A stretch of DNA of 64,000 bases from Minisyncoccota bacterium (GTDB lineage Bacteria; Patescibacteriota; Minisyncoccia; Phycocordibacterales; JABAAK01): assembly GCA_958295675.1 (NCBI GenBank), contig OY282360.1, positions 195,580 to 259,579 of the forward strand, given 5' to 3'. Positions within the stretch are counted from its first letter, which is position 1; each line of letters starts with the position of its first letter. The position numbers and the translations under genes were made by a program. The notes beneath the pieces were generated by a model. That model searched no databases and was not told the DNA's origin. It saw only the letters and a list, made by a program, of their open reading frames with translations. Of this stretch, positions 1,193 through 64,000 are shown piece after piece.

Positions 1193-1212
1193 CGGTGGTA
1201 TACTGCATACCG

Positions 1213-2046: not shown

Positions 2047-2051
2047 CACGG

Positions 2052-10898: not shown

Positions 10899-11228
10899 AT
10901 ATGGCGGTTATAGAACAGATTTTTCACCATTGACCGGTACAAATAATTAAAGTACCATGATGTATAGGTGAGCAAAATGGGGTGTGTGGTGTGCAGCCCG
11001 CCCTCCGTACAATTCTTCCGATCCGGCTGTTTAGCCTCACTCTTACGTTTGAAGGGGACGAGAGATGAGAAGAGACCTGCACCGAACAGAGAAGCGATCA
11101 TATGCCGTCTCTGATGATCGTGAAAGAAGGGAGGGAAGCGGTAATACGGTTTACCACCTCTTTTCCCGTGAATCGGAGGACTCACCTCATCCCGCACAGG
11201 ACTACGGTCTTGTGCGGGATTTTCTTTT
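10899..11228 (+). other. GC-rich noncoding segment ending in a Rho-independent terminator (candidate structured RNA)
   Basis: No + strand ORF of at least 60 aa across ~440 bp. Local hairpins (gatcat..atgatc; cctc..gagg). Terminator cccgcacagg-actacggtct-tgtgcggg plus T-run at 11191-11228. Confidence 0.25.
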
Positions 11229-11338
11229 GCGTGATTGATACCATATTGCACACAGTTCAAACGATACGAATTCGGTAAGTTAACCACATAGCGCATTCAT
11301 GGTTCTTTTTAATCGGTATACTACACATATAGTACGAT

Positions 11339-12007: not shown

Positions 12008-12010
12008 CGT

Positions 12011-12571
12011 ATGGTAAGTAATTTTATTCCAATTATCCTACTACTTCTGCTTTCCGCAGTACTATACGCGGTATTCATTTCACCGCAGTACGGCGACGCA
12101 AAAGCGCGGTTTAATCACATAACGGAACTGGAGGAGGCACTGTCACACAGCGACCTGCTTCAGGAGCGCAGAGATGAACTGCTCGCCCAGAAAAACAGTA
12201 TTCCGCAGGAACAACAGAATCTCGTAGACAAGCAGGTCGCGGAATACTCGTCAGAGTCAGTGGTAACATTCATATTGTCGCTCAATAACCTGCTGCTCAA
12301 CAGCGGTTTCGGCGGTGATGAATATATCATCGGTGCTGAACAAAAAGACCTTGACGGCATTGTGCTTATTCCGATAACATTCAATTTTGAAACCGTAGAA
12401 TACGCGGAAATACTGAGATTTATAGGCGTACTTGAGAATTGGGAGCGGGGCATACGAATTGTTTCAATTCGAATAAACACATCATCCGAGGAGCGTGATG
12501 CCGATTCAACCCGCGTGAACGCTGTTGTGTTGATAGAAGCGCTTTTTTCTGAAGAGGGTGCGGTACAATAA
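12011..12571 (+). CDS. PilO-like pilus assembly protein
   Basis: N-terminal TM IPIILLLLLSAVLYAVFI and a coiled coil. Operon position. Confidence 0.5.
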   Translation: MVSNFIPIILLLLLSAVLYAVFISPQYGDAKARFNHITELEEALSHSDLLQERRDELLAQKNSIPQEQQNLVDKQVAEYSSESVVTFILSLNNLLLNSGFGGDEYIIGAEQKDLDGIVLIPITFNFETVEYAEILRFIGVLENWERGIRIVSIRINTSSEERDADSTRVNAVVLIEALFSEEGAVQ

Positions 12572-12582
12572 TTGTAAGGAAT

Positions 12583-13113
12583 ATGACAAAAGAGCAATTA
12601 AAATCAATGATCATTTTCCTGGTACTGCTTGCTGTCACGGCGTATGTTGCGCACGCATTCGCGGTAGAGTCAGAAAAAAAATTTGAAACGATTGAATCAC
12701 AATCAACAACATTTCTTGATTTGATTGATCGGTTAAACAATGTTGAATTCGATCTTGAATTTGTCAGATCATTTACCGGATCAGGTTCCGCGGCGCGTAC
12801 GCGTACGGAGCCGGGTGCAGTTGCGCGCGTGCCGGAAAATCAAGTTGGAAGGGTAAATCCGTTTTCAGACACGATAGAACCGCTGACTCAGCGGAGCAGT
12901 TTTACCAATTCGCCATTGAATGAGAATCAAAATACAGCGGTCAGAAACTTTGAGAGCGCGTTCCTGAGCGCGGTTGAGGATCTCACCACTCAGACGGAAC
13001 AGGAAGCCGAAGATGAAACCGAAACTGAAACTGAAACTGAAATCAAAACTGAAATCGAAACCGAAGCCGACCAATCGCCTCCGCAGCAGCAAGCACAAAC
13101 CTTAACATTATAG
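12583..13113 (+). CDS. hypothetical pilus-operon membrane protein with acidic ETE repeat tail
   Basis: N-terminal TM. C-terminal ETETETETEIKTEIETE low-complexity region. Confidence 0.45.
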   Translation: MTKEQLKSMIIFLVLLAVTAYVAHAFAVESEKKFETIESQSTTFLDLIDRLNNVEFDLEFVRSFTGSGSAARTRTEPGAVARVPENQVGRVNPFSDTIEPLTQRSSFTNSPLNENQNTAVRNFESAFLSAVEDLTTQTEQEAEDETETETETEIKTEIETEADQSPPQQQAQTLTL

Positions 13114-13119
13114 CCGCAT

Positions 13120-15069
13120 ATGCCGCCGCTTCGCACAACAAAAACAAACCAACCGGACAACGCAGACGGCGGCGCGCAGGATTCGGTTAACGCGTTCGGC
13201 GTGCAGCCCGGACCCGATGCAGCGATACCTCCGGCGGATGCAGATAGTGCCGCGATATCTCCGAAAAAAAATGCACCGTCTGCAGCAACGAAAAAGACGG
13301 CGGGAAAAACAGCGCAAAAAAAAGGCGATAAGATTGCTGTAGATAAAGAGTATAAAATACCGAAAGATTTGTTCAGTTTTATTCCCAGAGATTCCGCGGA
13401 TCTCTATAAAATCGTGCCGCTTGAAAAAAAGGATAATGTGCTGTATGTCGGCACGGTGAATGAGAATAATCTTGACGCGCGGGATGCCCTCAACTTCATT
13501 ACAACCAGTCAGGGAATGGAGTACAAGATGCAGCAGATAACGGAAGAACAGTTCTCCGAGTTAGTCCAGCAATACGAACAGGCGAGTGAGACGATGAGCG
13601 ACGCACTGAGTCAATTGGAAGATCAATATGATGTGATGATTGATACCGGCAGTGATAAAGAGGACGAGAGATCGGCGGAGGCACTCATTCAGGAAGAAGC
13701 GCCGATTATAAAATTACTGAGCACGATTCTCGGGCAGGCGGTTGAAAAAGGCACCTCTGATGTTCATATTGAGGCGCAGGATAAAAAATCCGTCGTTCGG
13801 TACCGCATTGACGGCGTACTGGTTAAGCAGCTGGAATTCATACCGCGGGTTCACGATTCCATTGTCGCGCGCATAAAAATCGTGTCCAATCTGCGCCTTG
13901 ATGAGCGCCGTCGACCGCAGGACGGCAGATTTTCAAGCATAATCAGAAATAATCGCGTTGATTTTCGTGTCGCGACATTTCCGACACCGAACGGCGAAAA
14001 AGTAGTTCTTCGCGTACTGGACACGGCAAAAGGGTTGCGGTCACTGGGCGATCTCGGACTGGAAGAGAACATGTACGATAAAGTATTGCGCGCGATTAAG
14101 CGACCGTACGGACTCATTCTTGCGACCGGTCCGACCGGTGCCGGCAAAACAACAACACTGTACGCGCTGCTGAATATGCTGGATAGAAAATCACAGAACA
14201 TTGTGTCGCTGGAGGATCCGGTAGAGTATCAGCTGGAAGGTATTAACCAATCCAATATCCGCCCGGAAATCGGTTACAGCTTCGCGACCGGATTGCGTTC
14301 CGTACTCCGCGGCGACCCGGATCAGATTTTGGTTGGTGAGATTCGGGACAAGGAAACAGCGCAGCTCGCCATACAGGCGGCACTTACGGGACATTTAGTG
14401 TACTCCACACTCCATACGAATACCGCCATTGGCGCGGTGTCCCGTCTTGCACATTTCGGCATTGAACCGTTCCTGTTAGCGCCGACACTTCTGCTTATCG
14501 TCGGACAGCGCATGGCACGCCGTCTTGACGGCGAGGGTAAGGAGATGCCGGTGTCCGGCTCAATGCTCACATATCTTGAGGACAAGTTCAGTGATTTGCC
14601 GCAGCTCTACAGAAGTCAAATACCTGATTTTAGGGCATTTAAGGATGTGATACCGACTGAAGAGAATCCGTCCGGAATGAAAGGCAGAATCGGCGTGTTT
14701 GAAGTGCTTGAGGTAAACGATGAGATCCGTTCAATCATTATGAAACAGCCGGATGAAAGAGAAATATACAAAGCTGCCAGGAAAACCGGTTTTATCACCA
14801 TGGGTGAGGATGCCATCACCAAAGGTCTGAGAGGTCTTATGCCGTTTTCCGAGGTGGCAAAAATCAGCAATGAGGATGTGTTAGGCGAGGAAGAACCGGA
14901 AGCAGACAATATACCGAACGCGGAGAAAATGCCGGAGATAGAGAAAACGAAAAACATGCCGACGGAAACGGAAGAGCATATCAAGGCACCGCCGGGCGCG
15001 CGCAATCGGTCTGCGCCGCCGGCAATAAAAAAAGCATTCAGCAAGGAACGCGCGACGGACTTGTTTTAA
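13120..15069 (+). CDS. pilB: type IV pilus assembly ATPase PilB (GspE family) with long low-complexity N-terminal extension
   Basis: Walker A GPTGAGKTTTLYALL. GspE N-domain motifs. 649 aa. Confidence 0.85.
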   Translation: MPPLRTTKTNQPDNADGGAQDSVNAFGVQPGPDAAIPPADADSAAISPKKNAPSAATKKTAGKTAQKKGDKIAVDKEYKIPKDLFSFIPRDSADLYKIVPLEKKDNVLYVGTVNENNLDARDALNFITTSQGMEYKMQQITEEQFSELVQQYEQASETMSDALSQLEDQYDVMIDTGSDKEDERSAEALIQEEAPIIKLLSTILGQAVEKGTSDVHIEAQDKKSVVRYRIDGVLVKQLEFIPRVHDSIVARIKIVSNLRLDERRRPQDGRFSSIIRNNRVDFRVATFPTPNGEKVVLRVLDTAKGLRSLGDLGLEENMYDKVLRAIKRPYGLILATGPTGAGKTTTLYALLNMLDRKSQNIVSLEDPVEYQLEGINQSNIRPEIGYSFATGLRSVLRGDPDQILVGEIRDKETAQLAIQAALTGHLVYSTLHTNTAIGAVSRLAHFGIEPFLLAPTLLLIVGQRMARRLDGEGKEMPVSGSMLTYLEDKFSDLPQLYRSQIPDFRAFKDVIPTEENPSGMKGRIGVFEVLEVNDEIRSIIMKQPDEREIYKAARKTGFITMGEDAITKGLRGLMPFSEVAKISNEDVLGEEEPEADNIPNAEKMPEIEKTKNMPTETEEHIKAPPGARNRSAPPAIKKAFSKERATDLF

Positions 15070-15128
15070 ATGTATCATTGTTGATAGCAGGTTTCTGAAG
15101 CATAATCGCGTACTATACTACAGACAGT

Positions 15129-16214
15129 ATGACTGAATATCAAAAAGAGATACAGGATTATATTGACACAATCGCGACTCGCGAAGGGTCTGATATTCAT
15201 CTTATGACACACACAAAGCCGTTTCTGCGGGTAAAACGCGAACTGGTGCCGTTCATACAGAAAGAGCCGCTCATGCCCGAGGATACACTGGCATTCCTTC
15301 GCATACTTCTTCGGTCGGACACGGAAGATGTTGAAGCAAGAATACAGAAGGAGAAGCACATCTTATTCAGTTACCAGCACAAGACGCAGAGCGAGCGGGT
15401 GATGAACTTTCGGGTCACGGCATACCTTGAAAAGGGGGATATCGCGATAGCGATGCGGCTCATAGAGGAGACAGAGCGGACAATTGAGGAGCTCGGTCTG
15501 CCGCCCATACTGAAAAATGTAATGCAGGAGCCGAACGGTCTGTTCATAGTTATCGGTCCCGCCGGCAACGGAAAATCAACAACACTCGCCTCCATGGTGA
15601 ACCATTGCAACACCACGCTTCGCAGACACATTCTCACTATTGAGGATCCGATTGAGTTCATCTTTAAAAACAAAAAGTCAATTATCACGCAGCGAGAAGT
15701 GCCGTCCGATGTGCCCACATTCCGCTCAGCGTTGGATAGTGCTCTCCGCGCGGATGCGGATATCCTGATGATTGGCGAGATGCGGGAGACAGTAACCATG
15801 CAGGCAGTGATGACAGCCGCGGAAGTAGGGCATCTGGTGCTCTCAACGGTGCATGCAAATGACGCGGAGGGCGCGGTACACCGCATTGTGGATTCATTTC
15901 CGGGCGGTCAGCAGCAACAGATTGCGCAGCAGCTCGCGGGTGCGCTGCTCGGCATCTGCTCGGTGCGCCTCCTGCCGCGCACGACGGGCGGTCTCGTGCC
16001 GGCGTGTGAAGTGCTGTTCAACACGAATGCGGTCGCGAATCTCATCCGCGAAATGCGCGTCGCCGGACTGAGGACAGTCATGCAGACAGGAAAAGAAGAG
16101 GGCATGATAACTCTGGAACAGTCGCTCGCTGAATTGGTGAAACAGAACGAAATTTCCCTGGAGACGGCGAAGTTGTACGCGCCGGACGAGCGGTCGCTCA
16201 TGAGGTACCTCTAA
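15129..16214 (+). CDS. pilT: twitching-motility/retraction ATPase PilT
   Basis: Walker A GPAGNGKSTTLASMV. 361 aa, PilT/PilU-like. Confidence 0.8.
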   Translation: MTEYQKEIQDYIDTIATREGSDIHLMTHTKPFLRVKRELVPFIQKEPLMPEDTLAFLRILLRSDTEDVEARIQKEKHILFSYQHKTQSERVMNFRVTAYLEKGDIAIAMRLIEETERTIEELGLPPILKNVMQEPNGLFIVIGPAGNGKSTTLASMVNHCNTTLRRHILTIEDPIEFIFKNKKSIITQREVPSDVPTFRSALDSALRADADILMIGEMRETVTMQAVMTAAEVGHLVLSTVHANDAEGAVHRIVDSFPGGQQQQIAQQLAGALLGICSVRLLPRTTGGLVPACEVLFNTNAVANLIREMRVAGLRTVMQTGKEEGMITLEQSLAELVKQNEISLETAKLYAPDERSLMRYL

Positions 16215-16220
16215 CATACT

Positions 16221-17417
16221 ATGTTTTTCACATACACCGCAATTGACAAGGATAACAAGGAGATCAAAGGTCGTGTTGACGCGTCAAACCGGACGAGTGC
16301 GATAACGGTGCTGCTGAATAAGGGGTACACGGTTGTGTCGCTCAAGGAGGCAGATGATACGAAGGCATTCTCGGGCATATTTCTCCGCGTCAGGACGAAA
16401 GATATGGTCATCTTCTCACGGCAGATAGCGACACTCTTTGAAGCGGAGGTGTCAGCGCTGCGAGCGTTCAACCTTATTGCGGAAAATGTGCAGAATAAAT
16501 ATTTTCAGGGAATACTTCGCGATATCGCCAAGCATATTGAACAGGGATTTTCTATAGAAAGAGCATTCATGCAGCACAAAGACATCTTCGGTGAATTCTT
16601 CATATCCGTGATTTCAGTCGGAGAGCGGTCGGGAACACTCCCGAAGTCGTTTCTCTATCTTGCCGACTATGTGGAGCGCAACGCGGAGATAACAGCGAGA
16701 ATCAAAAAGGCACTCACCTATCCGGTTTTCGTGATCTTGATATTTATCGCGGTGATGGTGCTGATGTTAGTAACAGTAATTCCACAGATTGCCACTATTC
16801 TGACAGATTCCGGGGCAGAATTGCCGTTCGTTACCAAAATGGTTATCGGCGCCAGTGAATTTTTCAAAGCAAATATAGCGATTATACTCATCGCGTTCGC
16901 CGCGTTTGTTGCCGGCGGTATATACTGGGCGCGCACAAAAGACGGCAAACGCGCGCTGGATGAAACGGTTGTCACGCTCCCGATGCTCGGCGCGCTGTTC
17001 AGAAACTTTTACATCGTTCGTTTCTCACGGAATATCGGCGTGATGCTCACCAGCGGTGTGCCGATTGTCTCCGCGCTACAGACAATCAGCAGGGTGATGG
17101 GCAATGCGGTGTATACGGATATCGTGCTTGATGTGACAAAGAAAATGCAAGAAGGCACCACATTATCGGTCGCACTGGAAAACCAACCGCTCATCAGCAA
17201 AAACATCGCACAGATTATAAGGATAGGAGAGGAAACGGGAAAACTGCCGCAAATGTTTGAAGTGATTACTGATTTCTACGAAAAACAGCTGCAGAACACT
17301 ATAGACACGGCACTGGATCTCATTCAACCGACCATTATCGTGGCACTCGGTGCCAGTGTCGGATTGCTCATCGGCTCGGTTATCATTCCGATTTATTCAG
17401 TTACCAGTTCGCTGTAG
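16221..17417 (+). CDS. pilC: type IV pilus platform protein PilC (GspF family)
   Basis: Two GspF-type repeats and polytopic membrane topology. 398 aa. Confidence 0.8.
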   Translation: MFFTYTAIDKDNKEIKGRVDASNRTSAITVLLNKGYTVVSLKEADDTKAFSGIFLRVRTKDMVIFSRQIATLFEAEVSALRAFNLIAENVQNKYFQGILRDIAKHIEQGFSIERAFMQHKDIFGEFFISVISVGERSGTLPKSFLYLADYVERNAEITARIKKALTYPVFVILIFIAVMVLMLVTVIPQIATILTDSGAELPFVTKMVIGASEFFKANIAIILIAFAAFVAGGIYWARTKDGKRALDETVVTLPMLGALFRNFYIVRFSRNIGVMLTSGVPIVSALQTISRVMGNAVYTDIVLDVTKKMQEGTTLSVALENQPLISKNIAQIIRIGEETGKLPQMFEVITDFYEKQLQNTIDTALDLIQPTIIVALGASVGLLIGSVIIPIYSVTSSL

Positions 17418-17542
17418 TAAAAATGAAAAAACGCAGTTTTCCACATACCCAAGAAACAGACGGTATATACAAGGTAGCGTGTATAGTAAGTGGTTTCAGT
17501 AACCGCTTATAAAAATATTACTATAGATCTATATTAATAAAT

Positions 17543-18175
17543 ATGATGAATAATTACAGAAAAGGTTTTACCCTCATAGAACTGCTGATTGTCATTGCGA
17601 TTATCGGTATTCTTGCGGGTATTGTGGTTGTGTCCCTGTCCGGATCAACGGCAAGCGCGACCGAAGCGCGAATCAAAACAGCGCTGCGATCGGTGGACAC
17701 ATTATGGAAAGATAAAGCGATTAAGGACAGTACCAGTGGTCAGACAATTCCCTCAAATGACATTTGCAATGAATCCAATGTGAAAGCGTTGATGGATGCT
17801 GTCTTTGCTGATGTGGTAGTACTACATGGCACGACCGCTACTCCCAATGTTCCCGCTGTTGCTGCCGCAAGCCGCACAACAGGTAGCAACTATGCTGGGG
17901 TGTATGTGATAAGTGCTTCACCTACAGCTGAGGATATAACCGGTACCGGTAACGCTGGTGCTGGTGGTAAAAAAACACCAGCTGCCGGATGTGTTTCAAG
18001 CAAAGAAGGATGGGCTGTATGGGCGCGGGTGATTAATGATGGTACTGATGACAAGTACCATTGCATTGATACCACCGGATTCAACGGAGAGAAAACGACA
18101 CAAAATGGCACAGGCGATGCATCAAATCCTGCAGTCAAGACTGATGAGGTGAAATGTGGTACTTTGTTAGGATAG
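17543..18175 (+). CDS. type IV pilin (prepilin, class III signal peptide)
   Basis: KGFTLIELLIVIAIIGILAGIVVV N-terminus. Confidence 0.8.
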   Translation: MMNNYRKGFTLIELLIVIAIIGILAGIVVVSLSGSTASATEARIKTALRSVDTLWKDKAIKDSTSGQTIPSNDICNESNVKALMDAVFADVVVLHGTTATPNVPAVAAASRTTGSNYAGVYVISASPTAEDITGTGNAGAGGKKTPAAGCVSSKEGWAVWARVINDGTDDKYHCIDTTGFNGEKTTQNGTGDASNPAVKTDEVKCGTLLG

Positions 18176-18293
18176 TTTATTCACGGCATAAGATTGTTCT
18201 TGACATATCACACAAAAACGGCGCGGCGCAAGCCGCCCGTTTTTGTTGTGTACAGCACTTTGCACCACCAAAGCATGCCGTATACTATCATAT

Positions 18294-18794
18294 ATGCGTT
18301 CAAACGCTTTCACTCTTATAGAACTCCTTATTGTTATCGCCGTTCTCAGTGTTTTGGTCGGTTTGGTCATCGTCCAGTTCGGCGACGAGCTGAAGTTCGC
18401 GGATGACGGTGTTACCAAGGTGCGTGTCGTCTCAATAAGCAATCATGCGGTAAAGAAATCGTTCACATCGCCGCCGCCGACCGGAAACGCTATCTGCGAT
18501 GCTGTGCGCGATCAAGTACGGGATGGCAAGAATCAGATTTCATCTGATTGGACATCTACAACCGGCTGTACGGGTCGGGATGACGCAAACGACCCCGGTG
18601 AACTGTGCTGCGCTTCTGATGGTACGGAGTGGGTGGTATGGGGAGCGTACGAGGATTTTGATTACACGACGACCGGCGCTCTGAACGATGTCTACTGCAC
18701 CGATGATGACGAGTTTTCAAACGATATCAATGTGACTTCCGGCAACAGTGCTGCTGTATTGGTCATCACCGGCTCGGACTACAAATGCGAATAA
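18294..18794 (+). CDS. type IV pilin-like protein 2
   Basis: MRSNAFTLIELLIVIAVLSVLVGLVIV. Cys pair in the C-terminal domain. Confidence 0.75.
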   Translation: MRSNAFTLIELLIVIAVLSVLVGLVIVQFGDELKFADDGVTKVRVVSISNHAVKKSFTSPPPTGNAICDAVRDQVRDGKNQISSDWTSTTGCTGRDDANDPGELCCASDGTEWVVWGAYEDFDYTTTGALNDVYCTDDDEFSNDINVTSGNSAAVLVITGSDYKCE

Positions 18795-18840
18795 ATACTA
18801 TGATGCCCGTATAGGGAAATGAAGTATATACTGGCAGTAT

Positions 18841-20013
18841 ATGTTTTTTCACAGCAGTAACACGCGCTCAGGCACCAAGTCAGGATTCACACTTATTGAG
18901 ATGATTATTGTGCTCGGCATTATCATTGTCATCACACTGCTCGTTTTCACAAATTTTAATACCTTTACCTCCCGCTCCAATCTGCGCATCCGCACTTCCG
19001 AAATAGTTGGATATATTCGATTCGCGCAGGAGCGATCCGCATCATCCGAACATCTTCCCGGCGCGCTGTCATCGACACCGACCATCGGCTTTCAAGTTGT
19101 ACGCCTCAAGGTGCGTGACGGCGTGCTTCAGGAATATCGCCTTGAAAAAGTACCGGGAAAATTCAGCAGTTTTTCGGCAACAGTCGCTCAGGGCAGCGCT
19201 GATTTTCACGCGCAGGGACAGGTTGCTGTGTCTGATGCGCGGCATGTTATTCTTGACGGGCAGGAGACCTACTATGTGAATGTCTGTTTTATTGATACGA
19301 ACTCCACAGCCGTCTATCAACTGGAACCGCTGGAGACAAAACCAGCGACGGTTAACAGATGTTCAAAAACGCCGAAGACGACAGACAGAGATCTCTTCTG
19401 CGAACTCAACAATCCTTCCACCTCTGAAGGCAGGAATGAAATGCAAAGAAACAATTTTGACATACATCTCTCCATTGAGCAGCCGACACGGGAGGTGCAT
19501 GCGAACATATTCGCGGTCAGAAGTGACGGCAGCACCTACCAGTATACGAACGGCGGCGTGCGCCCGAACGGAACAAGCAATCGGATTTCCGGCATGTATG
19601 AGGGTCTGCGGATAGCGCTTATAACCCCGACCGGTGAGAAACGCAGCATTGATGTGTATCACACCGGTCTGGTCAGCACCAAGGCGAATGATGCGAGATC
19701 AGGATGCGGTGTGCCTCCTATTACCGGCTTAACGGCACAGTTGACCGCATCATCGGTATCGCTGGAATGGAAACATACGAGTCCCGATGTAACCGGTTAT
19801 AAACTGCGGATCAAGAAAGGAAGCTATCCTTTCGATCTGTGGACGGGAATAACGCCTGCAAGAAACGGTAACAATCGCACACATACCGTCACCACAGTCA
19901 ACAGAAGCGCACTGACACTGCCTACAAGTTATACATTTGAGGTGCGACCGGTAATAGGATCAATTTCCGCGCCCGCGATAAGTGTACAGATATTAGTACC
20001 ACCGAGCGGATAG
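18841..20013 (+). CDS. minor pilin / pseudopilin with C-terminal Ig- or FN3-like domain
   Basis: SGFTLIEMIIVLGIIIVITLLVF class III signal. 390 aa. Confidence 0.7.
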   Translation: MFFHSSNTRSGTKSGFTLIEMIIVLGIIIVITLLVFTNFNTFTSRSNLRIRTSEIVGYIRFAQERSASSEHLPGALSSTPTIGFQVVRLKVRDGVLQEYRLEKVPGKFSSFSATVAQGSADFHAQGQVAVSDARHVILDGQETYYVNVCFIDTNSTAVYQLEPLETKPATVNRCSKTPKTTDRDLFCELNNPSTSEGRNEMQRNNFDIHLSIEQPTREVHANIFAVRSDGSTYQYTNGGVRPNGTSNRISGMYEGLRIALITPTGEKRSIDVYHTGLVSTKANDARSGCGVPPITGLTAQLTASSVSLEWKHTSPDVTGYKLRIKKGSYPFDLWTGITPARNGNNRTHTVTTVNRSALTLPTSYTFEVRPVIGSISAPAISVQILVPPSG

Positions 20014-20067
20014 CAGCACTCACTCGTTTGCATATATGATATCTCGCCGGATATTAAGCGTATACTG

Positions 20068-22365
20068 TTGGTATGTATGTTCATTGAAGGAAGAAAAACA
20101 GACACTAATTCAGAATTGCACAGCGGTTTCACATTGATTGAACTACTGGTCGCCATCGCGCTTACCGGTATTATTATGTCGGCACTGCTGACGGTGTTCT
20201 TTTCCTTCATTCAGTCCCAGGCGACATCGCAAGATCGCAGTGATGCGCTTGAATCGGTCCGTTTTATGCTCTCTGACATCGCCCGTGAGGTATCATTCGG
20301 AAGCAATTATCGCTGTCCGGGCAGTGCCGCAACCTGCGCCTGTCTTATCTTCACCGACCAGCTGAACAGACGGGTAAAAATACAGCGCGCCGCCAATGGC
20401 GTGGTTGAAAAAAGTGTGAAACTATACGACAGTGCTCCGAATGACTGCTCTTCCGGCAATTGGGCACCGCTTACCGACACATCCACGAATATAACCGCGC
20501 TCTCGTTTGAAATTGAAACCGATAGTAACAAACAGCCGCGGGTGAAGATATCGGCTGATGCGGAATACGATTATGACGGCACCCAGCAGACCTTCTCAGT
20601 GAAAACGCAGATAACGAAACGCATCCTTGAGCCGTCCCAAAATGTCGCGAGTACATTTCGCATCGGATCCGAAAGCAATATCGCTGACGATTCCGTCAAT
20701 TTTGCCGTCTTCACAGAGCGTAGCAGCAGCGACAGCACCGTAGTGTGTAAGACCGGGGATGGTTTTGAGCTGGGAGGCGCAGCAGCAAGTGCTTGTGAGA
20801 GGAAACAATCGCCTGTCGCCGCGGAATTCACCACAAAAGGATTGTATGTGCTGACGGACAGTCGACTCATCTTCTTCATTCCGCAGGCGGATATTGACAG
20901 CGCGCTGCAGGCAAGCGGCGCGACAACCGATTCCGGCACTGCGGTCTACAGGAAATTCGGCACAACTTCCGGTGGTGAAACCATACAAAAGAAGCCGAGC
21001 CGGGTTGTCGGATACAGAGGATGCAAAATTTGCAATGACAATCCGAACAATATCACATCACTGCATCAGGGAGAACGGTACCTTTATGCGCGCGGCTTCA
21101 ACGGCTCGGTGTATCAGGTATGGGACGGTGCTTCAGCGACAATATACGCCACGCGTCGTGTTACGGGCGGCGTGATCAGAAACACCATGAGCCATATCAG
21201 CACACTATCGCAACCTGACGGGCACCACCGTCTTTTCACGCTATTCAGGGATGCGGACGGCATCAACAAACTGCGGTTGTATACAATACATAGCAGTGAT
21301 TTTGGCAAGAGTTATCTGACCAACAGGGACATACTCAGCGATAGCGACAGCACCGCACAGCCATGCGAAGAATTTGTAGGTATACCAAATTCTGGAAGCG
21401 CGCGTTGCAGACAGCTATGGCCTGATGACAGCGACAGCACCAATGTGGCACCGGCGAACCTCAAAACAGCACTGAGCAGCATATCGTTAGCAAGTATTGA
21501 TCGGCTGCAGGTACTCAATATCAGCAACACTAATATAGCACCAACAGACAGTATTCATATATGGTATTTCTCCGGCGGGAAAAAACATCTGCTTTCTTTT
21601 AAAGGAGATCGTCCGACTGGTCAGACAGAATATAAACTGCAGAACAGAGCGTCCCAGAGCGGTGCGAATCATCCGGACACGCTGCTCGCGTCCGGCGGTC
21701 CGTTTTCATACAGCAACGGACTCAATACATATACTTTTGTATGCGATAGTGCCGGCGCGCTGTGCAATATTGATCCCTTCACCCTCCCGTCAACCGCCCC
21801 ATCCGCGAGTGTGGGAGCAAATAACAAGATAGCACTGCCGTCAGGCATACGGTTTTTGGACAGCGGCAGAGACACAACCCCGCACCTGCATTTTAACGGC
21901 TATCCGATTGGTGTGGACAACAAGGGGCGTTTGATATATTTCAAAAATACATTCAACAGTACGAGATTTTCGGACAACAATGCGTACTTCACCGCACCTG
22001 TTTACAATACAACAGCAAAACGGGTATTATGCGATGCGCTGCCATATAAAAATGATCCGACAGATTCCGAGCGCACACGACAGGTAGCGTTTGAATATAT
22101 TTCTAAAAAGCATCCGTCAAGAGATATTGTCGCGCTTGTCGGTGCCGTGGTGCGCGACAATACCACGATGCACGAGGTATTTCTTTTAGTACCGACTGAC
22201 AAGACAGCCAGGGTACAATTCGGTCAGGAGGATACTACCGTATGTGGCAGAACCGGATCGGAGGAGTATGTTGAGCGGTTCCACCTTGACGCGCCGACCG
22301 GTGAATCAGGTCTCGCATTTGATCTCATTCGTTTGCGGGGATTTGAATTTAAAGACACAAAGTAG
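20068..22365 (+). CDS. giant pilin-like protein (765 aa; pilin N-terminus fused to a large, possibly adhesin/PilY1-like domain)
   Basis: SGFTLIELLVAIALTGIIMSALLTVFFSF class III signal followed by ~700 aa of Cys-containing beta-rich sequence. Confidence 0.65.
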   Translation: MVCMFIEGRKTDTNSELHSGFTLIELLVAIALTGIIMSALLTVFFSFIQSQATSQDRSDALESVRFMLSDIAREVSFGSNYRCPGSAATCACLIFTDQLNRRVKIQRAANGVVEKSVKLYDSAPNDCSSGNWAPLTDTSTNITALSFEIETDSNKQPRVKISADAEYDYDGTQQTFSVKTQITKRILEPSQNVASTFRIGSESNIADDSVNFAVFTERSSSDSTVVCKTGDGFELGGAAASACERKQSPVAAEFTTKGLYVLTDSRLIFFIPQADIDSALQASGATTDSGTAVYRKFGTTSGGETIQKKPSRVVGYRGCKICNDNPNNITSLHQGERYLYARGFNGSVYQVWDGASATIYATRRVTGGVIRNTMSHISTLSQPDGHHRLFTLFRDADGINKLRLYTIHSSDFGKSYLTNRDILSDSDSTAQPCEEFVGIPNSGSARCRQLWPDDSDSTNVAPANLKTALSSISLASIDRLQVLNISNTNIAPTDSIHIWYFSGGKKHLLSFKGDRPTGQTEYKLQNRASQSGANHPDTLLASGGPFSYSNGLNTYTFVCDSAGALCNIDPFTLPSTAPSASVGANNKIALPSGIRFLDSGRDTTPHLHFNGYPIGVDNKGRLIYFKNTFNSTRFSDNNAYFTAPVYNTTAKRVLCDALPYKNDPTDSERTRQVAFEYISKKHPSRDIVALVGAVVRDNTTMHEVFLLVPTDKTARVQFGQEDTTVCGRTGSEEYVERFHLDAPTGESGLAFDLIRLRGFEFKDTK

Positions 22366-22374
22366 CACTCAAAG

Positions 22375-23247
22375 ATGCTGCATGTCCGCCTAAAAATACG
22401 GTATCATACATCGTATATGATATATGAACCGTTCATAGTACAACCCGTGACGGCTGCTGTGACTGTTGCGGTATTGTTTCTGTTCGGTGCTGTTATCGGC
22501 AGTTTTATTGATGTCGTCCGTGTGCGTGAGTCATGGAAATCATCACTCAAGGGCAGATCACACTGCACTAATTGCGGGAGTACGCTGACATGGCAGATGC
22601 TGGTGCCGATAGTGTCATACATATATCTCAGGGGTAAGTGCGCTTCCTGCAAATATCCGATCCCATCTCATCATCTGTTGTCCGAAATGTTGATGGGATT
22701 GGCATTCGCATCTTCTTTTTTCTTCGCGGACTCACTGTATATAGCCGGTATCGGTATTGTTTCGGCAGTTTTTTTGGTGCCGATAGTGATCTCTGATATA
22801 GAGAAAATGGAAGTGCCGGAATATTTTTCCGTGCCATTCGCGTATATCTCACTTGGTGTCGCTATCGTCATAACGCTGCAGACAGGAAGCATTGTGCCCG
22901 TACTCGGCGGCGTGCTGCTTGCCGTTCCATTTTTCCTGATGTGGCTGTGTTCGTCCGGCAGAGCAATGGGACTCGGTGACGCAAAAGTCGCGGTATCGCT
23001 CGGTTTCCTGTTGCCGGTATGGCACGCGGCGATTTCTGTTTTTGTGTTCACTTTCTGGATAAGCACGCTCGGTCTTCTGTGCTATGTGCTGTACATGAAA
23101 ACACGAGTGCGGTCATTCCGCCTGAAACGGAACACTCGCATGCCATTGGTACCAGGTATGGTCGTGGCGTACGCTGTCGTACTCTTCAGCGATGTGTCAT
23201 TCTTCAACATTGTCTCCTGGGGAGAGCAGGCGTTTATCAGCGTATAG
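22375..23247 (+). CDS. pilD: prepilin peptidase PilD (A24 family)
   Basis: Zn-binding CTNCGS...CASCKYPI pair. Catalytic GLGDAKV. Polytopic membrane topology. Confidence 0.8.
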   Translation: MLHVRLKIRYHTSYMIYEPFIVQPVTAAVTVAVLFLFGAVIGSFIDVVRVRESWKSSLKGRSHCTNCGSTLTWQMLVPIVSYIYLRGKCASCKYPIPSHHLLSEMLMGLAFASSFFFADSLYIAGIGIVSAVFLVPIVISDIEKMEVPEYFSVPFAYISLGVAIVITLQTGSIVPVLGGVLLAVPFFLMWLCSSGRAMGLGDAKVAVSLGFLLPVWHAAISVFVFTFWISTLGLLCYVLYMKTRVRSFRLKRNTRMPLVPGMVVAYAVVLFSDVSFFNIVSWGEQAFISV

Positions 23248-34308: not shown

Positions 34309-34452
34309 AATTCGTTCAATAAAAAAATTCCCCAAGCACACGGTGCTATGGAATTGATCAACTTGCAATGTAAGAGTATTATTGACAATAAATATTATAT
34401 ATTATAAAATATAGTCAGATACGGATGTTCAACACCAACAGGAGGGTTGATA

Positions 34453-51691: not shown

Positions 51692-52669
51692 ATGTTCGTG
51701 GACGAAAGAACAATCACAATTTCCGGCGGTGCTGGCGGCGACGGAGCGGTGCATTGGCATCGGGAAAAATTCATCGCGAAAGGCGGACCGGACGGCGGTA
51801 ACGGCGGCAAGGGCGGTGATGCGTACATAGAAGCCGTTCGGGATCTTCGCGCGCTTGAGCGGTACCGGCAGGGTGATGTGCTGAAAGCGACGGACGGCGC
51901 GCCCGGCAGCGGCTCGTTAAAAAGCGGTCAGAACGGCGGTGATCTGACAGTATATGTGCCGATCGGATCTATTGTAAAGAACTTAAGAACACAGGAACGA
52001 TTTGAGTTGACACAGGAAGGACAGCGGGTGATGATTGCAGCCGGCGGACAGGGCGGATTCGGCAATGCGCATTTCAAAAGTTCAGTGAACACCACGCCGC
52101 AAACCGCGACATCGGGAGAACGCCCGCAGACATATCGGTTTCATATTGAACTGAATATAATTGCCGATGCCGGTATCATCGGCCTGCCGAATGCCGGCAA
52201 ATCAACCCTGCTGAACACACTCACCGCGGCATCTGTCCGCACCGCGGCATATCCGTTTACCACACTTGAACCGAACCTCGGCATGTTCCACGGTTTTGTA
52301 CTCGCGGATATTCCCGGTGTGATTGAGCATGCGTCACAGGGAAAGGGTTTGGGACATAAGTTTCTGCGCCATATCGCCCGTACCGGAGTGCTGGTGCATC
52401 TTGTCGCCGCGGATGAACCGGATGTCGCGCGCGCATACCATATTGTTCGCAAAGAACTGGAGACATACAATATGATGCTGATAAAAAAGAAAGAAATAGT
52501 GGTGCTGTCAAAGACAGACACAGTTTCCGAGGAACAAAAAAACATGCTGCTCACAATATTGCCGAAGGGGGCGATACCGCTGACTGTTTTGGATGATGCA
52601 TCGGTCGCGGCATTCAGCGCTGAACTTTCAAGAATGCTCGGCAAGGATGCAGTGAATACAAACGGGTAG
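51692..52669 (+). CDS. obg: GTPase Obg/CgtA
   Basis: Gly-rich Obg fold N-terminus (ISGGAGGDGAVHW...GGPDGGNGGKGGD). G-domain GLPNAGKSTLL, DIPGVIEHA. Confidence 0.9.
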   Translation: MFVDERTITISGGAGGDGAVHWHREKFIAKGGPDGGNGGKGGDAYIEAVRDLRALERYRQGDVLKATDGAPGSGSLKSGQNGGDLTVYVPIGSIVKNLRTQERFELTQEGQRVMIAAGGQGGFGNAHFKSSVNTTPQTATSGERPQTYRFHIELNIIADAGIIGLPNAGKSTLLNTLTAASVRTAAYPFTTLEPNLGMFHGFVLADIPGVIEHASQGKGLGHKFLRHIARTGVLVHLVAADEPDVARAYHIVRKELETYNMMLIKKKEIVVLSKTDTVSEEQKNMLLTILPKGAIPLTVLDDASVAAFSAELSRMLGKDAVNTNG

Positions 52670-52692
52670 TTTTTGCTACACTATACACATAT

Positions 52693-54111
52693 ATGTACAC
52701 ACCGACCATAGGACTTGAAATACATGCCGAACTGCTCACCGACAGCAAATTATTCTGCGGGTGCAGAAACGAGCCGAATGAAGTGCCGCCGAACACACAT
52801 ATCTGTCCGGTGTGTGTCGGGTATCCGGGTGCGCTGCCGTTTCTGAATAAGCAGGCAGTGGAACATGTGCTCCGTATCGGCACGGCACTAAACGGTACTG
52901 TAGCGACTGCGACAGAATTTGATCGTAAACATTATTTTTATCCGGACATACCGAAAGGGTATCAAATCAGTCAGTACCCGTATCCGCTGATTCAGAAAGC
53001 GAAACTGGCAGGTGTCGGTATTCAGCGGGTGCATTTGGAGGAGGACACCGCGAAAAGTTCGCATGATGTGACCGCACAGGGTTCAGTCATTGATTTCAAC
53101 CGATCGGGAGTACCGTTAATGGAGCTGGTGACGGATCCGGTTATGCACACGGCAGAAGAAGCGAAACACTTCGCCGAAACTCTGCAGATGACTCTCCGTT
53201 ATCTCGAAGCCGCACGCGCTCGCATGGAATGGGGTGAGATGCGGGTAGAGGCGAATATCTCAGTCAGCAAGACAGAAAAACTCGGTACCAAGGTTGAGAT
53301 TAAAAACCTAAATTCATTTAAGGCGGTAACCGGTGCTATTGAGTTTGAAATACAGCGCCACATTGAAGCATTAGAGAATGGTGAGCGCATTGTGCAGGAA
53401 ACTCGCGGCTGGAATGAAAACACCGGCAAAACTTTTTCCCAGCGTCTGAAAGAGACATCAGCGGAATATCGGTACATGCCCGAGCCGGACTTGCCGAAGT
53501 ATCGCATTGACACCGTACCCGGATGGGATGCGGTATCGCTGAAAGCGACTATTCCAGAACTTCCGGAGCAGAAATTGAAACGGTATATTGAGGAAACGGA
53601 AATACCGGAAGGTCAGGCGGATATTCTGGTGCGGCATAAACAGCTTGCGGATGTGTTTGACGGTACGATAGCAGCGGTCCGGCATAAAGATGCGGTGCGG
53701 CTGACCGCGAACTATCTTTCTACTGATGTGATGCAGTACATGGAGACAGACGGTGAAACATTGTTTGACGGCATCACAGTTGCAACAATAACGGAGTTGA
53801 TACAACTCATTATTGACGGCGAACTGTCATCGCGCGGCGCGAAAGACATTATTGCCGTTCTGGTACAGGATGGCGGCAGTCCGCGGACAATCGCGGAACA
53901 GAAAGGTCTCTTTCAACAGTCCGATGAGCGCGTACTCGGTGAGATTGTTGAACGGGTTGTGCGGGGACATACTGACATGGTCGATGAATATCGCGCCGGT
54001 AAAGAACAGGTGCTGAAATTTCTTGTCGGACAGGTGATGAAAGAAACAAAAGGGTCGGCAAATCCAGAAGTCGCGAGCGAACTTCTGAAAAAACATTTAA
54101 ATAAAAAATAA
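52693..54111 (+). CDS. gatB: Asp/Glu-tRNA(Asn/Gln) amidotransferase subunit B
   Basis: PTIGLEIHAELLTDSKLFCGC..CPVCVGYPGALP N-terminus. 472 aa. Confidence 0.85.
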   Translation: MYTPTIGLEIHAELLTDSKLFCGCRNEPNEVPPNTHICPVCVGYPGALPFLNKQAVEHVLRIGTALNGTVATATEFDRKHYFYPDIPKGYQISQYPYPLIQKAKLAGVGIQRVHLEEDTAKSSHDVTAQGSVIDFNRSGVPLMELVTDPVMHTAEEAKHFAETLQMTLRYLEAARARMEWGEMRVEANISVSKTEKLGTKVEIKNLNSFKAVTGAIEFEIQRHIEALENGERIVQETRGWNENTGKTFSQRLKETSAEYRYMPEPDLPKYRIDTVPGWDAVSLKATIPELPEQKLKRYIEETEIPEGQADILVRHKQLADVFDGTIAAVRHKDAVRLTANYLSTDVMQYMETDGETLFDGITVATITELIQLIIDGELSSRGAKDIIAVLVQDGGSPRTIAEQKGLFQQSDERVLGEIVERVVRGHTDMVDEYRAGKEQVLKFLVGQVMKETKGSANPEVASELLKKHLNKK

Positions 54112-54251
54112 AATCATTGACAAAATTATTTCTTTTGATAAAACAAATATTCTATTGCGATTATGCGAAACATTTGATACTATACCAGTGGGTAACGATT
54201 ACCCGTCCGTGACAATATCACCTTAGCAGGTCAACAGAGGAGGACAGGAGG

Positions 54252-56727: not shown

Positions 56728-57153
56728 TTATTCTTCTACAGCAGCGGACTCACCGTCGTTATTCGTCGCATCGTTCGGTCCCGTTTCAGATTGTTCGGTT
56801 TCCAATGCAGATGTCTCATCGTTGCGTTTTGTTTGTTCATCAACAGCATCAGAATCCTCCTTCGCTTGTGCATCCGCGGCATCACTTTCTTCATCAGTTT
56901 CTTTTTCTTCCGCATCAGCATCACCTTCCTCATCCGTCATTTCTTCCGCCTGTTCATCCTCAGTATCACCTTCCTCATCCGTAAGCAGTGAGGAAACATC
57001 GGAAGTAAAGTCAGAAAAGTTCCCCTGATTTTCCTGCACCCCTCGTATTGACTCCCGCGCGCGCATCCGCATCTCATCTATCGGAGCGAATATATACACA
57101 ATAATCGCGAGAAGTATGATAGCAAAAAACACGGGCGGTCCGATAGTGTACAT
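56728..57153 (-). CDS. membrane-anchored highly acidic (D/E-rich) protein
   Basis: N-terminal TM (PPVFFAIILLAIIVYIFAPI). The remaining ~100 aa are ~45% D/E. Confidence 0.4.
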   Translation of the reverse strand: MYTIGPPVFFAIILLAIIVYIFAPIDEMRMRARESIRGVQENQGNFSDFTSDVSSLLTDEEGDTEDEQAEEMTDEEGDADAEEKETDEESDAADAQAKEDSDAVDEQTKRNDETSALETEQSETGPNDATNNDGESAAVEE

Positions 57154-61731: not shown

Positions 61732-62691
61732 ATGAAAGTTCTTGTAACACAACACATTCCTGAAGCGGGATTACAGATACTGCGCGGAGAAAATATAGAG
61801 GTGACTGTTCTGAAAGGCAGACCGAGAAAGAACCGCATTATCAGTGAACTCAAAAAAGAGCCGTATGACGGTATGATTGTGCTGCTTACTGACACAATTG
61901 ACGGGGAAGTGATAGCAGCCACAGGAAGCAATATGCGCATCATCGCCAACTACGCGGTCGGATTCAACAACATAGCAGTCGCCGCGGCGAAAGAAAAGCA
62001 CATAGCGGTCACAAATACGCCGGGCGTACTCACCGAAACGGTCGCGGAACACGCAGTCGCGCTCATACTCGCCGCAGCGACCCGCACTATTGAAGCGGAT
62101 GCGTTCGTGCGCAACAACAAATTCACCGGCTGGGAGCCGGAACTGCTTTTAGGTATTGATCTGCAGGGAAAAACACTCGGCATCCTCGGTGCGGGACGGA
62201 TCGGCAGCCGCGTCGCGGAGATTATGACCGGATTCGGCATGAATATTGTCTACTATGATGTGCGCGCGAATCAGGCACTGGAGCAAGCGACAGAAGCGAA
62301 ACAATATGACGCGCCGGAGGAAGTGCTGAAAACTGCTGATGTTATCTCAGTACACCTGCCGCTGAACGAGCAGACACATCACTTCCTGAACGCCGAACGA
62401 CTTGCGCTGCTCAAACCGGCCGCGATACTGGTGAACACCTCGCGCGGTCCCGTCATTGATGAAAAAGCCCTTATAGCAGCACTGCAGGAAAGAAAGATAT
62501 TCGGCGCGGCACTGGATGTGTTTGAGCATGAACCGAAAGTACCCCGCGCGCTCCGCCGACTGCCTAATGTCGTGTTGACTCCGCACACCGCCTCAGCGAG
62601 CATTACCACGCGGAATCGCATGGCGGAAATTGCCGCGCAGAATGTCATCGCCGTCCTGCACGGCGGCACACCGCTCAATCCGGTGGAATAG
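61732..62691 (+). CDS. D-isomer-specific 2-hydroxyacid dehydrogenase (glycerate/hydroxypyruvate reductase-like)
   Basis: NAD-binding GILGAGRIGSRVAEI. Catalytic R/E/H region (NTSRGPVID...LDVFEHEP...TPHTAS). Confidence 0.85.
   Translation: MKVLVTQHIPEAGLQILRGENIEVTVLKGRPRKNRIISELKKEPYDGMIVLLTDTIDGEVIAATGSNMRIIANYAVGFNNIAVAAAKEKHIAVTNTPGVLTETVAEHAVALILAAATRTIEADAFVRNNKFTGWEPELLLGIDLQGKTLGILGAGRIGSRVAEIMTGFGMNIVYYDVRANQALEQATEAKQYDAPEEVLKTADVISVHLPLNEQTHHFLNAERLALLKPAAILVNTSRGPVIDEKALIAALQERKIFGAALDVFEHEPKVPRALRRLPNVVLTPHTASASITTRNRMAEIAAQNVIAVLHGGTPLNPVE
62647..62690 (+). repeat. direct repeat copy 1 (44 bp; 3' end of dehydrogenase gene)
   Basis: ATCGCCGTCCTGCACGGCGGCACACCGCTCAATCCGGTGGAATA is identical to 63481-63524. 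Confidence 0.9.
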
Positions 62692-62754
62692 CAAGATTAG
62701 TGCGAAACAAGAATACTTTTACGGATGAGGAAAATGCGGTTACACCTGTTAATC

Positions 62755-63228
62755 CTACGATGATGCTGTCAGAACATGGTAACTTCCGATTGGTGGTCCG
62801 ACAGCAAGAGTAACAGTTGCAATAATTACAAAGAAAGGGACAATATATATAAGACTTTCCTTAAACCAAGATTGACTGGAAGTAGTCGGTGGTTTTCCGT
62901 ACATATTCGTTTTTTTGACACCAGGAACGCATAGCAGGAGCAGGAAGAAAAGAAGATTAATTAGCGGGATGACAGCAAAAACGGCAAACCACCTCGACTG
63001 TCCGATATCGTGTAACCTTTTCACTGCTATCGGTACAAGAATCAAAGGAAACAAAACAGCAAACCACCCAGCTCCGATAGCAGTGAATGTGTACGGGCTG
63101 AAAATATCATAGATATATGGCAGTACAACAAAGAGAAACACAGGTAACACGAGCTGTTTTCTCCCCATGCGATCCTGCAATATATTTTTGAAAAAGTGTG
63201 TGTTCATACATTGTATACAGTAACACAA
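62755..63228 (-). CDS. DUF805 family inner-membrane protein
   Basis: KRLHDIGQSRWFAVF motif (DUF805 RLHD..SGWW). Four TM helices. Lies between the two direct-repeat copies. Confidence 0.6.
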   Translation of the reverse strand: MCYCIQCMNTHFFKNILQDRMGRKQLVLPVFLFVVLPYIYDIFSPYTFTAIGAGWFAVLFPLILVPIAVKRLHDIGQSRWFAVFAVIPLINLLFFLLLLCVPGVKKTNMYGKPPTTSSQSWFKESLIYIVPFFVIIATVTLAVGPPIGSYHVLTASS

Positions 63229-63467
63229 CTGTCAACAACGGAATCGGTAACGGTTTGTTCGGTGGTGCCGGCAGCATAATATACTCCAGCATCGCCGTTA
63301 CCAACAGTTACTACAACAAGGATATTGCGCGCGCTGCCGAGCAGTACAGCGCGGGAAGGACGGCGGCACAGATGCAATCCGGAACGCCGAGCAGTACGAT
63401 ATACACCAATTGGGACACGGATGTTTGGAACTTCGGTACCGCTACTGAGTATCCGATATTGCGTTAA
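63198..63467 (+). CDS. hypothetical small Gly/Ser/Thr-rich protein
   Basis: 89-aa ORF ending just before repeat copy 2. Low-complexity; weak. Confidence 0.25.
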   Translation: MCSYIVYSNTTVNNGIGNGLFGGAGSIIYSSIAVTNSYYNKDIARAAEQYSAGRTAAQMQSGTPSSTIYTNWDTDVWNFGTATEYPILR

Positions 63468-63480
63468 TCGCCCAACTATC

Positions 63481-63524
63481 ATCGCCGTCCTGCACGGCGG
63501 CACACCGCTCAATCCGGTGGAATA
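63481..63524 (+). repeat. direct repeat copy 2 (44 bp)
   Basis: Identical to 62647-62690. Recreates the IAVLHGGTPLNPVE-stop coding tail. Confidence 0.9.
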
Positions 63525-63611
63525 ATGACAGGTAATAGAACTTGACAAAATTATTATATATCCTAAAATAGTATTAGATTGCTTTTTCTAATAATCCACA
63601 TAAGGAGGGAT

Positions 63612-64000
63612 TATGACAATGCCACTCACATCCGCCAGCTCGCAAAAGGCGAGCATTGAAGCAGACATACTACCAATACCCTGCTCCTGCTGCGGAAGCG
63701 GAAAGAAGTTTGACCACTTCCACCATTTCTTTCTGGAGGAACCGATCAATATCGCCCCATCCGATTTGACGAAGTTTGTCCGTCGAATTGAGGCCGCTGA
63801 ACAGGAATACCTTGAGATAAGACGACAAAACGGCGATTTGGCACAGATCGCGCTGCTAGATTTGGGAAACGGTCCCTTGGCTGTCGTGTGTACCACGCAA
63901 ATGGTGCACATACTCCGCTGTTTCTACGACAATGTCGGAGTATACAACCAGAATGTAGGAAGATTCGTTATCATTGGCGGAAAAGATGATAACAGTTGCT
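63612..64000 (+). CDS. hypothetical protein, 5' partial view (runs off window end)
   Basis: ATG after strong RBS AAGGAGGG. Promoter TTGACAAAATTATT-N-TAAAAT at ~63542-63570. Open frame to the window end. Preferred over the 63588-63911 - strand ORF. Confidence 0.45.

Follow-up and report, generated by a model that had tools for sequence, protein, structure and literature searches.

Cis-mobilizable elements (CIMEs) are elements that have lost their genes for integration and transfer and have retained both attachment (att) sites, attL and attR (PMC5704250). In Streptococcus thermophilus, for example, fda has CIMEs derived from ICESt1 and ICESt3 at its 3′ end (Pavlovic et al. 2004; Bellanger et al. 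2011, cited in PMC5704250). Tyrosine integrases also integrate prophages and genomic islands into the 3′ ends of genes, including those for tRNA and tmRNA, as with the ssrA-targeted islands of Dehalococcoides (PMC3146451). In this study, we analyzed a 64,000-nt stretch of contig OY282360.1 from a Minisyncoccota bacterium, hereafter called the window. Near its right end, the last 46 nt of a gene for a 2-hydroxyacid dehydrogenase were found twice, and the segment between the two copies carried a gene for a DUF805 membrane protein and the remnant of a GLUG-module surface-protein gene. On balance, we lean toward the explanation that this locus is the decayed remnant of circular DNA that integrated at the 3′ end of the dehydrogenase gene and that is now integrase-less and CIME-like.

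The locus resembled CIMEs in several respects. Its cargo lies between direct repeats, and one repeat forms the 3′ end of a protein-coding housekeeping gene that keeps its open reading frame (ORF). Integration and transfer genes are absent; the islet may be read as a product of decay from a larger integrated element, and its excision or mobilization would in principle be expected only with a recombinase supplied in trans. Structurally, it fits the definition of a CIME, with attL- and attR-like sites kept and the genes for integration and transfer lost. However, the trait by which CIMEs are identified is a related autonomous element with matching att sites, and no such element is known here. Unlike S. 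thermophilus, which is a Firmicute, the host is Patescibacteria-like. Described CIMEs range from kilobases to tens of kilobases, and the islet in this study, at 0.8 kb, is much smaller.

Similarly, prophages and islands at gene 3′ ends have an att segment that duplicates the end of the target, and the target gene stays functional. As in these elements, the identity between the two copies was perfect, sharply bounded and tens of bp long, and a presence/absence polymorphism among strains was suggested. Unlike them, the locus lacked phage and island genes, and neither att-like site had an integrase beside it. We know of no described att site in a dehydrogenase gene. The arrangement is also like the product of Campbell-type homologous integration, in which a single crossover in a short shared segment leaves the insert between direct repeats. 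The minimal processing segment of RecA is about 25-30 bp in Escherichia coli, and the 46 bp observed here are above it. A RecA route of this kind would need a circle that already had the last 46 nt of the gene, which means an earlier association with the locus.

A perfect direct repeat at the end of the dehydrogenase gene

The repeat unit was TCATCGCCGTCCTGCACGGCGGCACACCGCTCAATCCGGTGGAATA, and the starts of its two copies were 834 bp apart (Table 1). A preliminary description of the window, made from the letters alone, had reported a perfect direct repeat of the dehydrogenase 3′ end with about this spacing. The repeat is real, with a length of 46 nt rather than the 44 nt given there. When up to three mismatches were allowed, the 46-mer occurred exactly twice in the window, and no occurrence was expected from 100 dinucleotide-preserving shuffles. 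No other long perfect dispersed repeat was found within the window. Aligned in register, the two copies were 100% identical over the repeat, and the identity was 25% over the 60 nt on the left and 35% over the 60 nt on the right. Both edges of the repeat are abrupt, unlike the graded decay expected from an old duplication. The repeat ends one base short of a complete stop codon, which is finished by G at copy 1 (TAG) and by A at copy 2 (TAA).

The dehydrogenase is of the D-glycerate/glyoxylate type, and its two Pfam matches were strong (2-Hacid_dh_C, E = 3.5e-62; 2-Hacid_dh, E = 5e-29). The nearest dehydrogenases were 58-71% identical to it, and the few named ones were annotated as Kaiserbacteria or Patescibacteria group. 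The 46-mer encodes ...VIAVLHGGTPLNPVE, and the C-terminus of the dehydrogenase is NVIAVLHGGTPLNPVE. This C-terminus is conserved among the homologues in that identity range, in which the relatives show NVIAVLHGGxPxNxV. The 46-mer encodes the native C-terminus conserved in the family; the repeat originated as dehydrogenase sequence, and the gene itself is intact. An intact gene with its native C-terminus in the repeat is what elements integrating into gene 3′ ends also leave behind, and this favors the explanation given above.

Table 1. Features at and around the repeat, in window coordinates
Feature	Position	Strand	Basis or remark
D-isomer-specific 2-hydroxyacid dehydrogenase gene (D-glycerate/glyoxylate type), 319 aa, intact; target gene	61732..62691	+	Pfam
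Repeat copy 1 (attL-like)	62645..62690	+	3′ end of the dehydrogenase ORF to the second stop-codon base
Inserted segment, 788 bp, mosaic of low-GC and high-GC parts	62691..63478	.	Between the repeat copies
DUF805 membrane-protein gene, 150 aa, intact; cargo	62755..63207	-	Pfam PF05656, E = 3.9e-13
GLUG-type module remnant, 5′-truncated, last ~83 codons and native stop; pseudogene fragment	63216..63467	+	phmmer, BLASTP
Repeat copy 2 (attR-like)	63479..63524	+	Displaced/duplicated dehydrogenase 3′ end; followed by AT (TAA-T)
Promoter-like site, TTGACA-16-TAAAAT (11/12), for the downstream gene	63542..63569	+	Native-type motif
Downstream ORF, cut by the window end; presumed native right flank	63613..64000	+	Composition

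The segment between the two copies

The insert was heterogeneous in composition. Its GC content was about 0.40-0.44 at 62700-63200 and about 0.53-0.55 at 63200-63500. We did not find inverted repeats at its ends or any tandem repeats in it, and blastn and tblastn revealed no paralogue of the insert within the window. No Rfam family matched it at E ≤ 1, and a non-coding RNA or riboswitch reading of the insert was rejected on this ground.

The minus-strand DUF805 gene noted between the copies in the preliminary description was confirmed by Pfam (Table 1). An alternative start at 63168 would give a protein of 137 aa. The gene had a GC content of 0.413, which was below that of all 49 other genes of the window (z = -2.5), and its GC content at third codon positions (GC3), 0.404, was below that of 47 of these 49 genes. 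Its protein had a weak match to PHROG 12855 (membrane protein, moron category; E = 6.7e-7). A search of 5.8 billion proteins gave essentially one close relative, P0121, which was 99% identical and came from the sister-strain sample discussed below. No relatives were found in IMG/VR.

The second piece had been described as a small low-complexity ORF, and this did not hold. A word-indexed homologue search with the fragment gave no match, and it was the exhaustive phmmer search that identified it as the truncated end of a GLUG-module surface-protein gene. Against 1.84 billion representatives, phmmer gave 372 matches at E ≤ 1e-3 (best, 8.5e-54). The matches were to a module of about 75 aa that occurs in 5-14 repeats in proteins of 2,000-7,000 aa, often at the extreme C-terminus; these proteins carry the Pfam domains Glug, Peptidase_S8 (subtilase) and fn3. 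In BLASTP, residues 7-89 of the fragment aligned with the very C-terminal residues of two proteins (P0176 and P0141) at 52-56% identity. The GC3 of the remnant, 0.62, was at the high end of the genome range.

Homology of the fragment to GLUG modules begins at residue 7 of the ORF (nt 63216), 8 nt from the ATG of the DUF805 gene. It follows that an internal fusion or deletion breakpoint lies at about 63208-63215. At its other end, the remnant is followed by copy 2 of the repeat, which begins 11 nt past the remnant stop. As the GLUG remnant is truncated and ends at its native stop, the insert itself is the product of deletion or fusion, as would be found in a decayed island. In the remnant, 14 nt at 63352-63365 were 86% complementary to the 5′ part of the 46-mer at 62649-62662 and 63483-63496 (CGGGAAGGACGGCG and CGCCGTCCTGCACG); this complementarity is probably due to chance.

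The right flank of the second copy

A strong promoter-like site directly follows copy 2, and its word TTGACAAAATTATT recurs at 54117, with a close variant at 34382. The ORF behind this site had a GC content of 0.488 and a GC3 of 0.558, both within the genome range. No match to it was found in Pfam, PHROG or PADLOC, and no relatives in IMG/VR or the JGI metagenomes. The native promoter motif and the typical composition together make the right flank of copy 2 look like native chromosome, which argues against an integrase-bearing element just past the window. The suggestion that an integrase might lie beyond the window therefore appears unlikely; moreover, an integrase that uses the two sites should lie between them.

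The shared word extends as TTGACAAAATTATT(ATATAT)..TAAAA(T) at 63542-63571, 54117-54143 and 34382-34411. The occurrence at 54117 is just past gatB and about 380 nt upstream of the ORF containing gap, and the variant at 34382 is upstream of a small ORF at about 34450. The word is probably a housekeeping promoter consensus of this organism.

The sister strain and other related loci

A duplicated tail of the dehydrogenase gene was present at none of the 46 related loci that have the gene, among them those of five long-contig relatives with 68-71% identity. The 50 related loci all lacked the DUF805 gene, the GLUG piece and the downstream ORF, and no integrase, DUF805 or GLUG gene stood beside the dehydrogenase gene in the five closest relatives on long contigs. 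A site of recurrent integration was thus rejected for these loci. The absence of the insert from 50 loci and of a duplicated tail from 46 points to a recent, lineage-specific event.

The closest sequences came from a sister strain. Two of its contigs, L043 and L044, both from one European Nucleotide Archive (ENA) sample (ERZ27241690 / ERZ23493506, SAMN10953135), had 97.3% nucleotide identity to the window across the region from pfkB to the dehydrogenase gene. They carried the identical 46-mer once, at the gene end, followed by ATAGGCGAATAATGAGCAATAGAACTACAC and, in L043, then by a Nextera adapter. The junction was a single sequence, assembled at k = 141, from the dehydrogenase gene through the 46-mer into the flank. 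This flank was unlike the flank of copy 1, with which its longest common word was 5 nt. L043 and L044 matched copy 2 over 48 nt (63479-63526; GGAATA plus AT, stop codon TAA), against 46 nt for copy 1. The sister flank and the copy-2 flank also shared the 9-mer AATAGAACT (P of about 0.006-0.007 with composition-matched controls), and when the 2-nt extra match was counted with the 9-mer, P was about 0.001. The sister gene end is thus a probable empty-type site, judged from a single 46-mer and 30 nt of flank.

A further contig of the same sample, L047, is a single tagmentation fragment. It covered 62716-63233 at 99.4% identity and included the DUF805/GLUG junction. Between the two populations, the insert had 3 differences in 519 nt and the dehydrogenase region 35 in 1340 nt (99.4% versus 97.4%; Fisher P = 0.003). 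The higher similarity of the insert would fit a younger or exchanged segment. The preliminary description had proposed that related genomes be searched for an empty site with one repeat copy; the sister offers such a candidate, with a single 46-mer and a copy-2-like flank, although it is one sample with 30 nt of flank.

The sister contigs (ENA ERZ27241690) had untrimmed Nextera adapter ends, CTGTCTCTTATACACATCT... and CAAGCAGAAGACGGCATACGAGAT... (L043 1-8 and 1397-1423; both ends of L047). The contigs are fragments of low coverage with non-biological termini.

Upstream of the dehydrogenase gene, the order gap, rpiB, rpe, tktN, tktC, membrane protein, pfkB was kept in the relatives L045 and L046. 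Downstream of it, gene order differed from relative to relative. In the window, Obg and GatB (51692-54111) lie upstream of the gap-tkt-pfkB-dehydrogenase block; in L045, the 71% relative, they lie downstream of the dehydrogenase gene and are inverted (10589-15745). This rearrangement makes the dehydrogenase 3′ end a synteny or inversion breakpoint between the lineages.

Searches for mobility genes and for known element classes

No recombinase or transposase domain was detected in any window ORF of at least 150 aa, and the small ORFs in the gaps were unlike recombinases. The earlier statement that no integrase or transposase is in view thus held for the whole window. The 46-mer had no match in IMG/VR, and a 38-mer subsequence of it had none in the JGI metagenome contigs. 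A distant blastn search with 62640-64000 against the INPHARED phages and PLSDB plasmids also gave no match.

An integrated element should contain a recombinase, usually near one att site, and be flanked by direct repeats, with the 3′ end of a gene regenerated by one of them. Such repeats were found, with 46 of 46 nt identical and an intact ORF of 319 aa. The recombinase was not; the insert comprised the DUF805 gene and the GLUG remnant only.

Two other classes were rejected. For a transposon, insertion sequence, miniature inverted-repeat transposable element or casposon, there were no terminal inverted repeats, the duplication was 46 bp long, and neither a transposase nor Cas1 was found. The sole Cas4-like PD-(D/E)XK match in the window was at 2052-2852, 60 kb from the insert. 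For an integron gene cassette, the repeats were identical coding copies and not imperfect palindromes of the attC type, and there was no IntI-like gene.

Origin of the locus

In the history that we favor, circular DNA that also bore the last 46 nt of the gene would have recombined with the chromosomal gene end in the manner of Campbell. This recombination would most likely have been the work of a tyrosine or serine integrase, with the 46 bp as its att identity segment; otherwise, RecA would have used this homology. In the product, the gene would end in copy 1, followed by the insert, copy 2 and the native promoter of the next gene. Apart from a stop codon changed from TAA to TAG, the dehydrogenase ORF would be left as it was. 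The original island might have been larger, with attP just after the GLUG surface-protein gene, and might later have been cut to 0.8 kb by deletion or replacement. Since there is no recombinase and a truncated gene abuts the repeat, a reduced larger island is the simplest history. After decay, the low-GC DUF805 gene would have been left joined, at a point 8 nt upstream of its ATG, to the last ~83 GLUG codons. The islet would now be immobile unless a recombinase were supplied in trans, and it could be lost through recombination between the two 46-mers. An empty-site junction would read gene-46-mer-ATGACAGG, and the junction of the circle, or attP, would read GLUG remnant-46-mer-GCAAGATTAG.

We infer that the event was an insertion here and not a deletion in the sister, that the intermediate was circular, that an integrase played a role and that the islet decayed from a larger element. 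An integrase and RecA would leave the same sequence, so that "site-specific" is our interpretation of the exchange. Site-specific integration into the gene end had already been proposed in the preliminary description. The anatomy of an insertion, the sharp edges and the native C-terminus speak for it, while a recombinase and an element bearing attP are missing. The part of that proposal that survives is the non-autonomous cassette, and the duplication or deletion junction also named there is the less likely reading.

Several points weigh against integration followed by decay. Searches of the insert and of the whole 64 kb gave no integrase, excisionase or transfer gene. A free or integrated element bearing attP was found in none of IMG/VR, JGI, INPHARED and PLSDB, which hold few Patescibacteria elements. 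At 788 bp, the insert is far below the size of any autonomous integrative element, so that decay has to be assumed in addition. Recombination between the repeats could have removed the segment in the sister, and the event could then have run in either direction. The evidence on the sister flank comes from 30 nt in one sample, the anchored global alignment of this flank with the copy-2 flank was weakly significant (P = 0.03-0.12), and L043 and L047 are not necessarily from one genome. The 46-mer can form two hairpins (a 6-bp stem with a 5-nt loop and a 5-bp stem with a 7-nt loop; DNA fold z-score, -3.05), which is statistically unusual. We do not take these hairpins to indicate a recombinase core site, as their arms are just 5-6 bp long and lie within conserved coding sequence.

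Alternatively, the insert might have resulted from an accident of repair or replication, which we consider unlikely. DNA could have been captured at a staggered break, where two nicks 46 bp apart were filled in to give a 46-bp target duplication; or, in a template switch, 788 nt could have been copied from another locus before synthesis restarted 46 nt upstream. The lack of a recombinase and of terminal inverted repeats would agree with such an accident. So would the make-up of the insert, in which unrelated pieces, one of them a gene fragment, are joined as is common in filler DNA, and the uniqueness of the event, given the 0 of 46 related loci with a duplicated gene tail. However, a target duplication of 46 bp is far longer than the transposase or repair footprints known to us. 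No microhomology was seen at the junction of the insert and copy 2, where the sequence is CCCAACTA as against the native GCAGAATG upstream of copy 1. The duplication also ends inside the stop codon and preserves the ORF exactly, which would be rare for a random break. Furthermore, the DUF805/GLUG junction was present in the sister sample (L047, to 63233), which implies that the mosaic predates the event.

To the same degree improbable is the relic of a segmental duplication, in which a second copy of the dehydrogenase gene lost its first ~914 nt, together with most of the intervening DNA, and only the last 46 nt were left. The dehydrogenase origin of the 46-mer is compatible with this scenario, and so are the one or more internal deletion or fusion breakpoints in the interval (63208-63215) and the synteny breakpoint among relatives downstream of the gene. 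Nevertheless, several independent events would be needed, and the end of the deletion must have hit the exact start of the identity, as no similarity was left over leftward (25% identity). No second copy of the dehydrogenase gene or of its tail was found at any related locus. The single copy with a copy-2-type flank in the sister would not be predicted either, unless the segment had been lost there too.

There is a small chance that the islet is still active. The 834-bp unit of 46-mer, DUF805 gene and GLUG remnant would then be an integrase-less mini-cassette circulating in a Patescibacteria population. A recombinase encoded elsewhere in the genome, for example one of the Xer type or the integrase of a resident element, would insert it at the dehydrogenase 3′ end and excise it again. 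Such a unit would be analogous to integron cassettes or pdif modules, and its activity would explain why the 97% sister has an empty-type site and the same sample has the cassette at 99.4%.

An assembly artefact is very unlikely. It would require that, in a strain mixture, a loop was threaded via the shared 46-mer, so that no single molecule has the tandem arrangement; what exists would be an empty chromosome and a separate molecule or locus with the 46-mer, the DUF805 gene and the GLUG remnant. The source contig is apparently derived from a metagenome (P0273 and P0274, identical to the dehydrogenase and DUF805 proteins of the window; NCBI/ENA), and the sister sample holds both an empty-type junction and the DUF805 segment. 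Yet the 46-mer would still be needed in two sequence contexts, and the recombination junction would be real either way. A length of 46 does not correspond to k-1 for assembler defaults in common use (such as 20/21, 28/29, 32/33, 38/39, 54/55 and 58/59). Moreover, a contig of 724,510 bp for such a genome indicates a high-contiguity, probably long-read assembly, and the window has no Ns or other anomalies.

The accretion of an incoming element beside a CIME at a gene-end att site is well documented (PMC5704250), and the ORF after copy 2, which has no homologue in relatives or databases, could be accessory DNA. The islet might in this way be the decayed first member of a tandem array, with an intact integrase-bearing element past 64000 and a third 46-mer beyond it, but this is just as doubtful as the artefact: the copy-2 flank has the TTGACAAAATTATT promoter word of native housekeeping genes, the ORF has genome-typical GC and GC3, and a related flank after the single-copy gene end of the sister shows that the flank behaves as chromosome.

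Genomic setting and other features of the window

The window is ordinary chromosome of a small-genome bacterium resembling the Patescibacteria or Candidate Phyla Radiation (CPR). It contains tRNA genes, AlaRS, ArgRS, a type IV pilus cluster, GrpE-DnaK-DnaJ, MurJ, LepA, SecA, Obg and GatB, as well as a pentose-phosphate/glycolysis block. The pilus cluster (9765-23247, plus strand) comprises PilM, two PilB/PilT-type ATPases, PilC, a prepilin peptidase and several N-methyl pseudopilins, one of them 765 aa long; it is typical of episymbiotic Patescibacteria.

Two ORFs of repetitive composition were observed. Upstream of secA, an ORF of 89 aa (47011-47280, plus strand) is extremely basic, rich in K, R and T, and has units like TTKRRTAKKS. 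It is coded by about five imperfect tandem repeats of 45-48 nt, and its product may be histone-like or bind nucleic acids. The other ORF, of 141 aa (56728-57153, minus strand), lies between rpe and an ion-channel gene. Its N-terminus has a hydrophobic anchor, and its tail is highly acidic, repetitive and D/E-rich, with imperfect 30-nt repeats. L045 has an unannotated gene of 116 aa in the matching position.

Beside mnmA (1165-2852, plus strand), a gene with an Mrr-type restriction endonuclease domain is adjacent to a Cas4-like PD-(D/E)XK nuclease gene. The Mrr-type gene weakly matched ZorD and PDC-S02 in PADLOC. Neither a CRISPR array nor cas1 was visible. The two genes may be a small defence or repair pair.

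Implications

A correct annotation would label the GLUG piece a pseudogene fragment and call no gene at the second 46-mer. The locus is a new example of a well-known type of genomic scar and opens no new question. Integrated elements and att sites are poorly catalogued in Patescibacteria, whose small genomes are considered poor in mobile DNA. If the explanation favored here is true, a Patescibacteria (CPR)-like organism would have both a recombination hotspot at the dehydrogenase 3′ end and a presence/absence polymorphism, and the DUF805 membrane protein would be flagged as strain-variable cargo.

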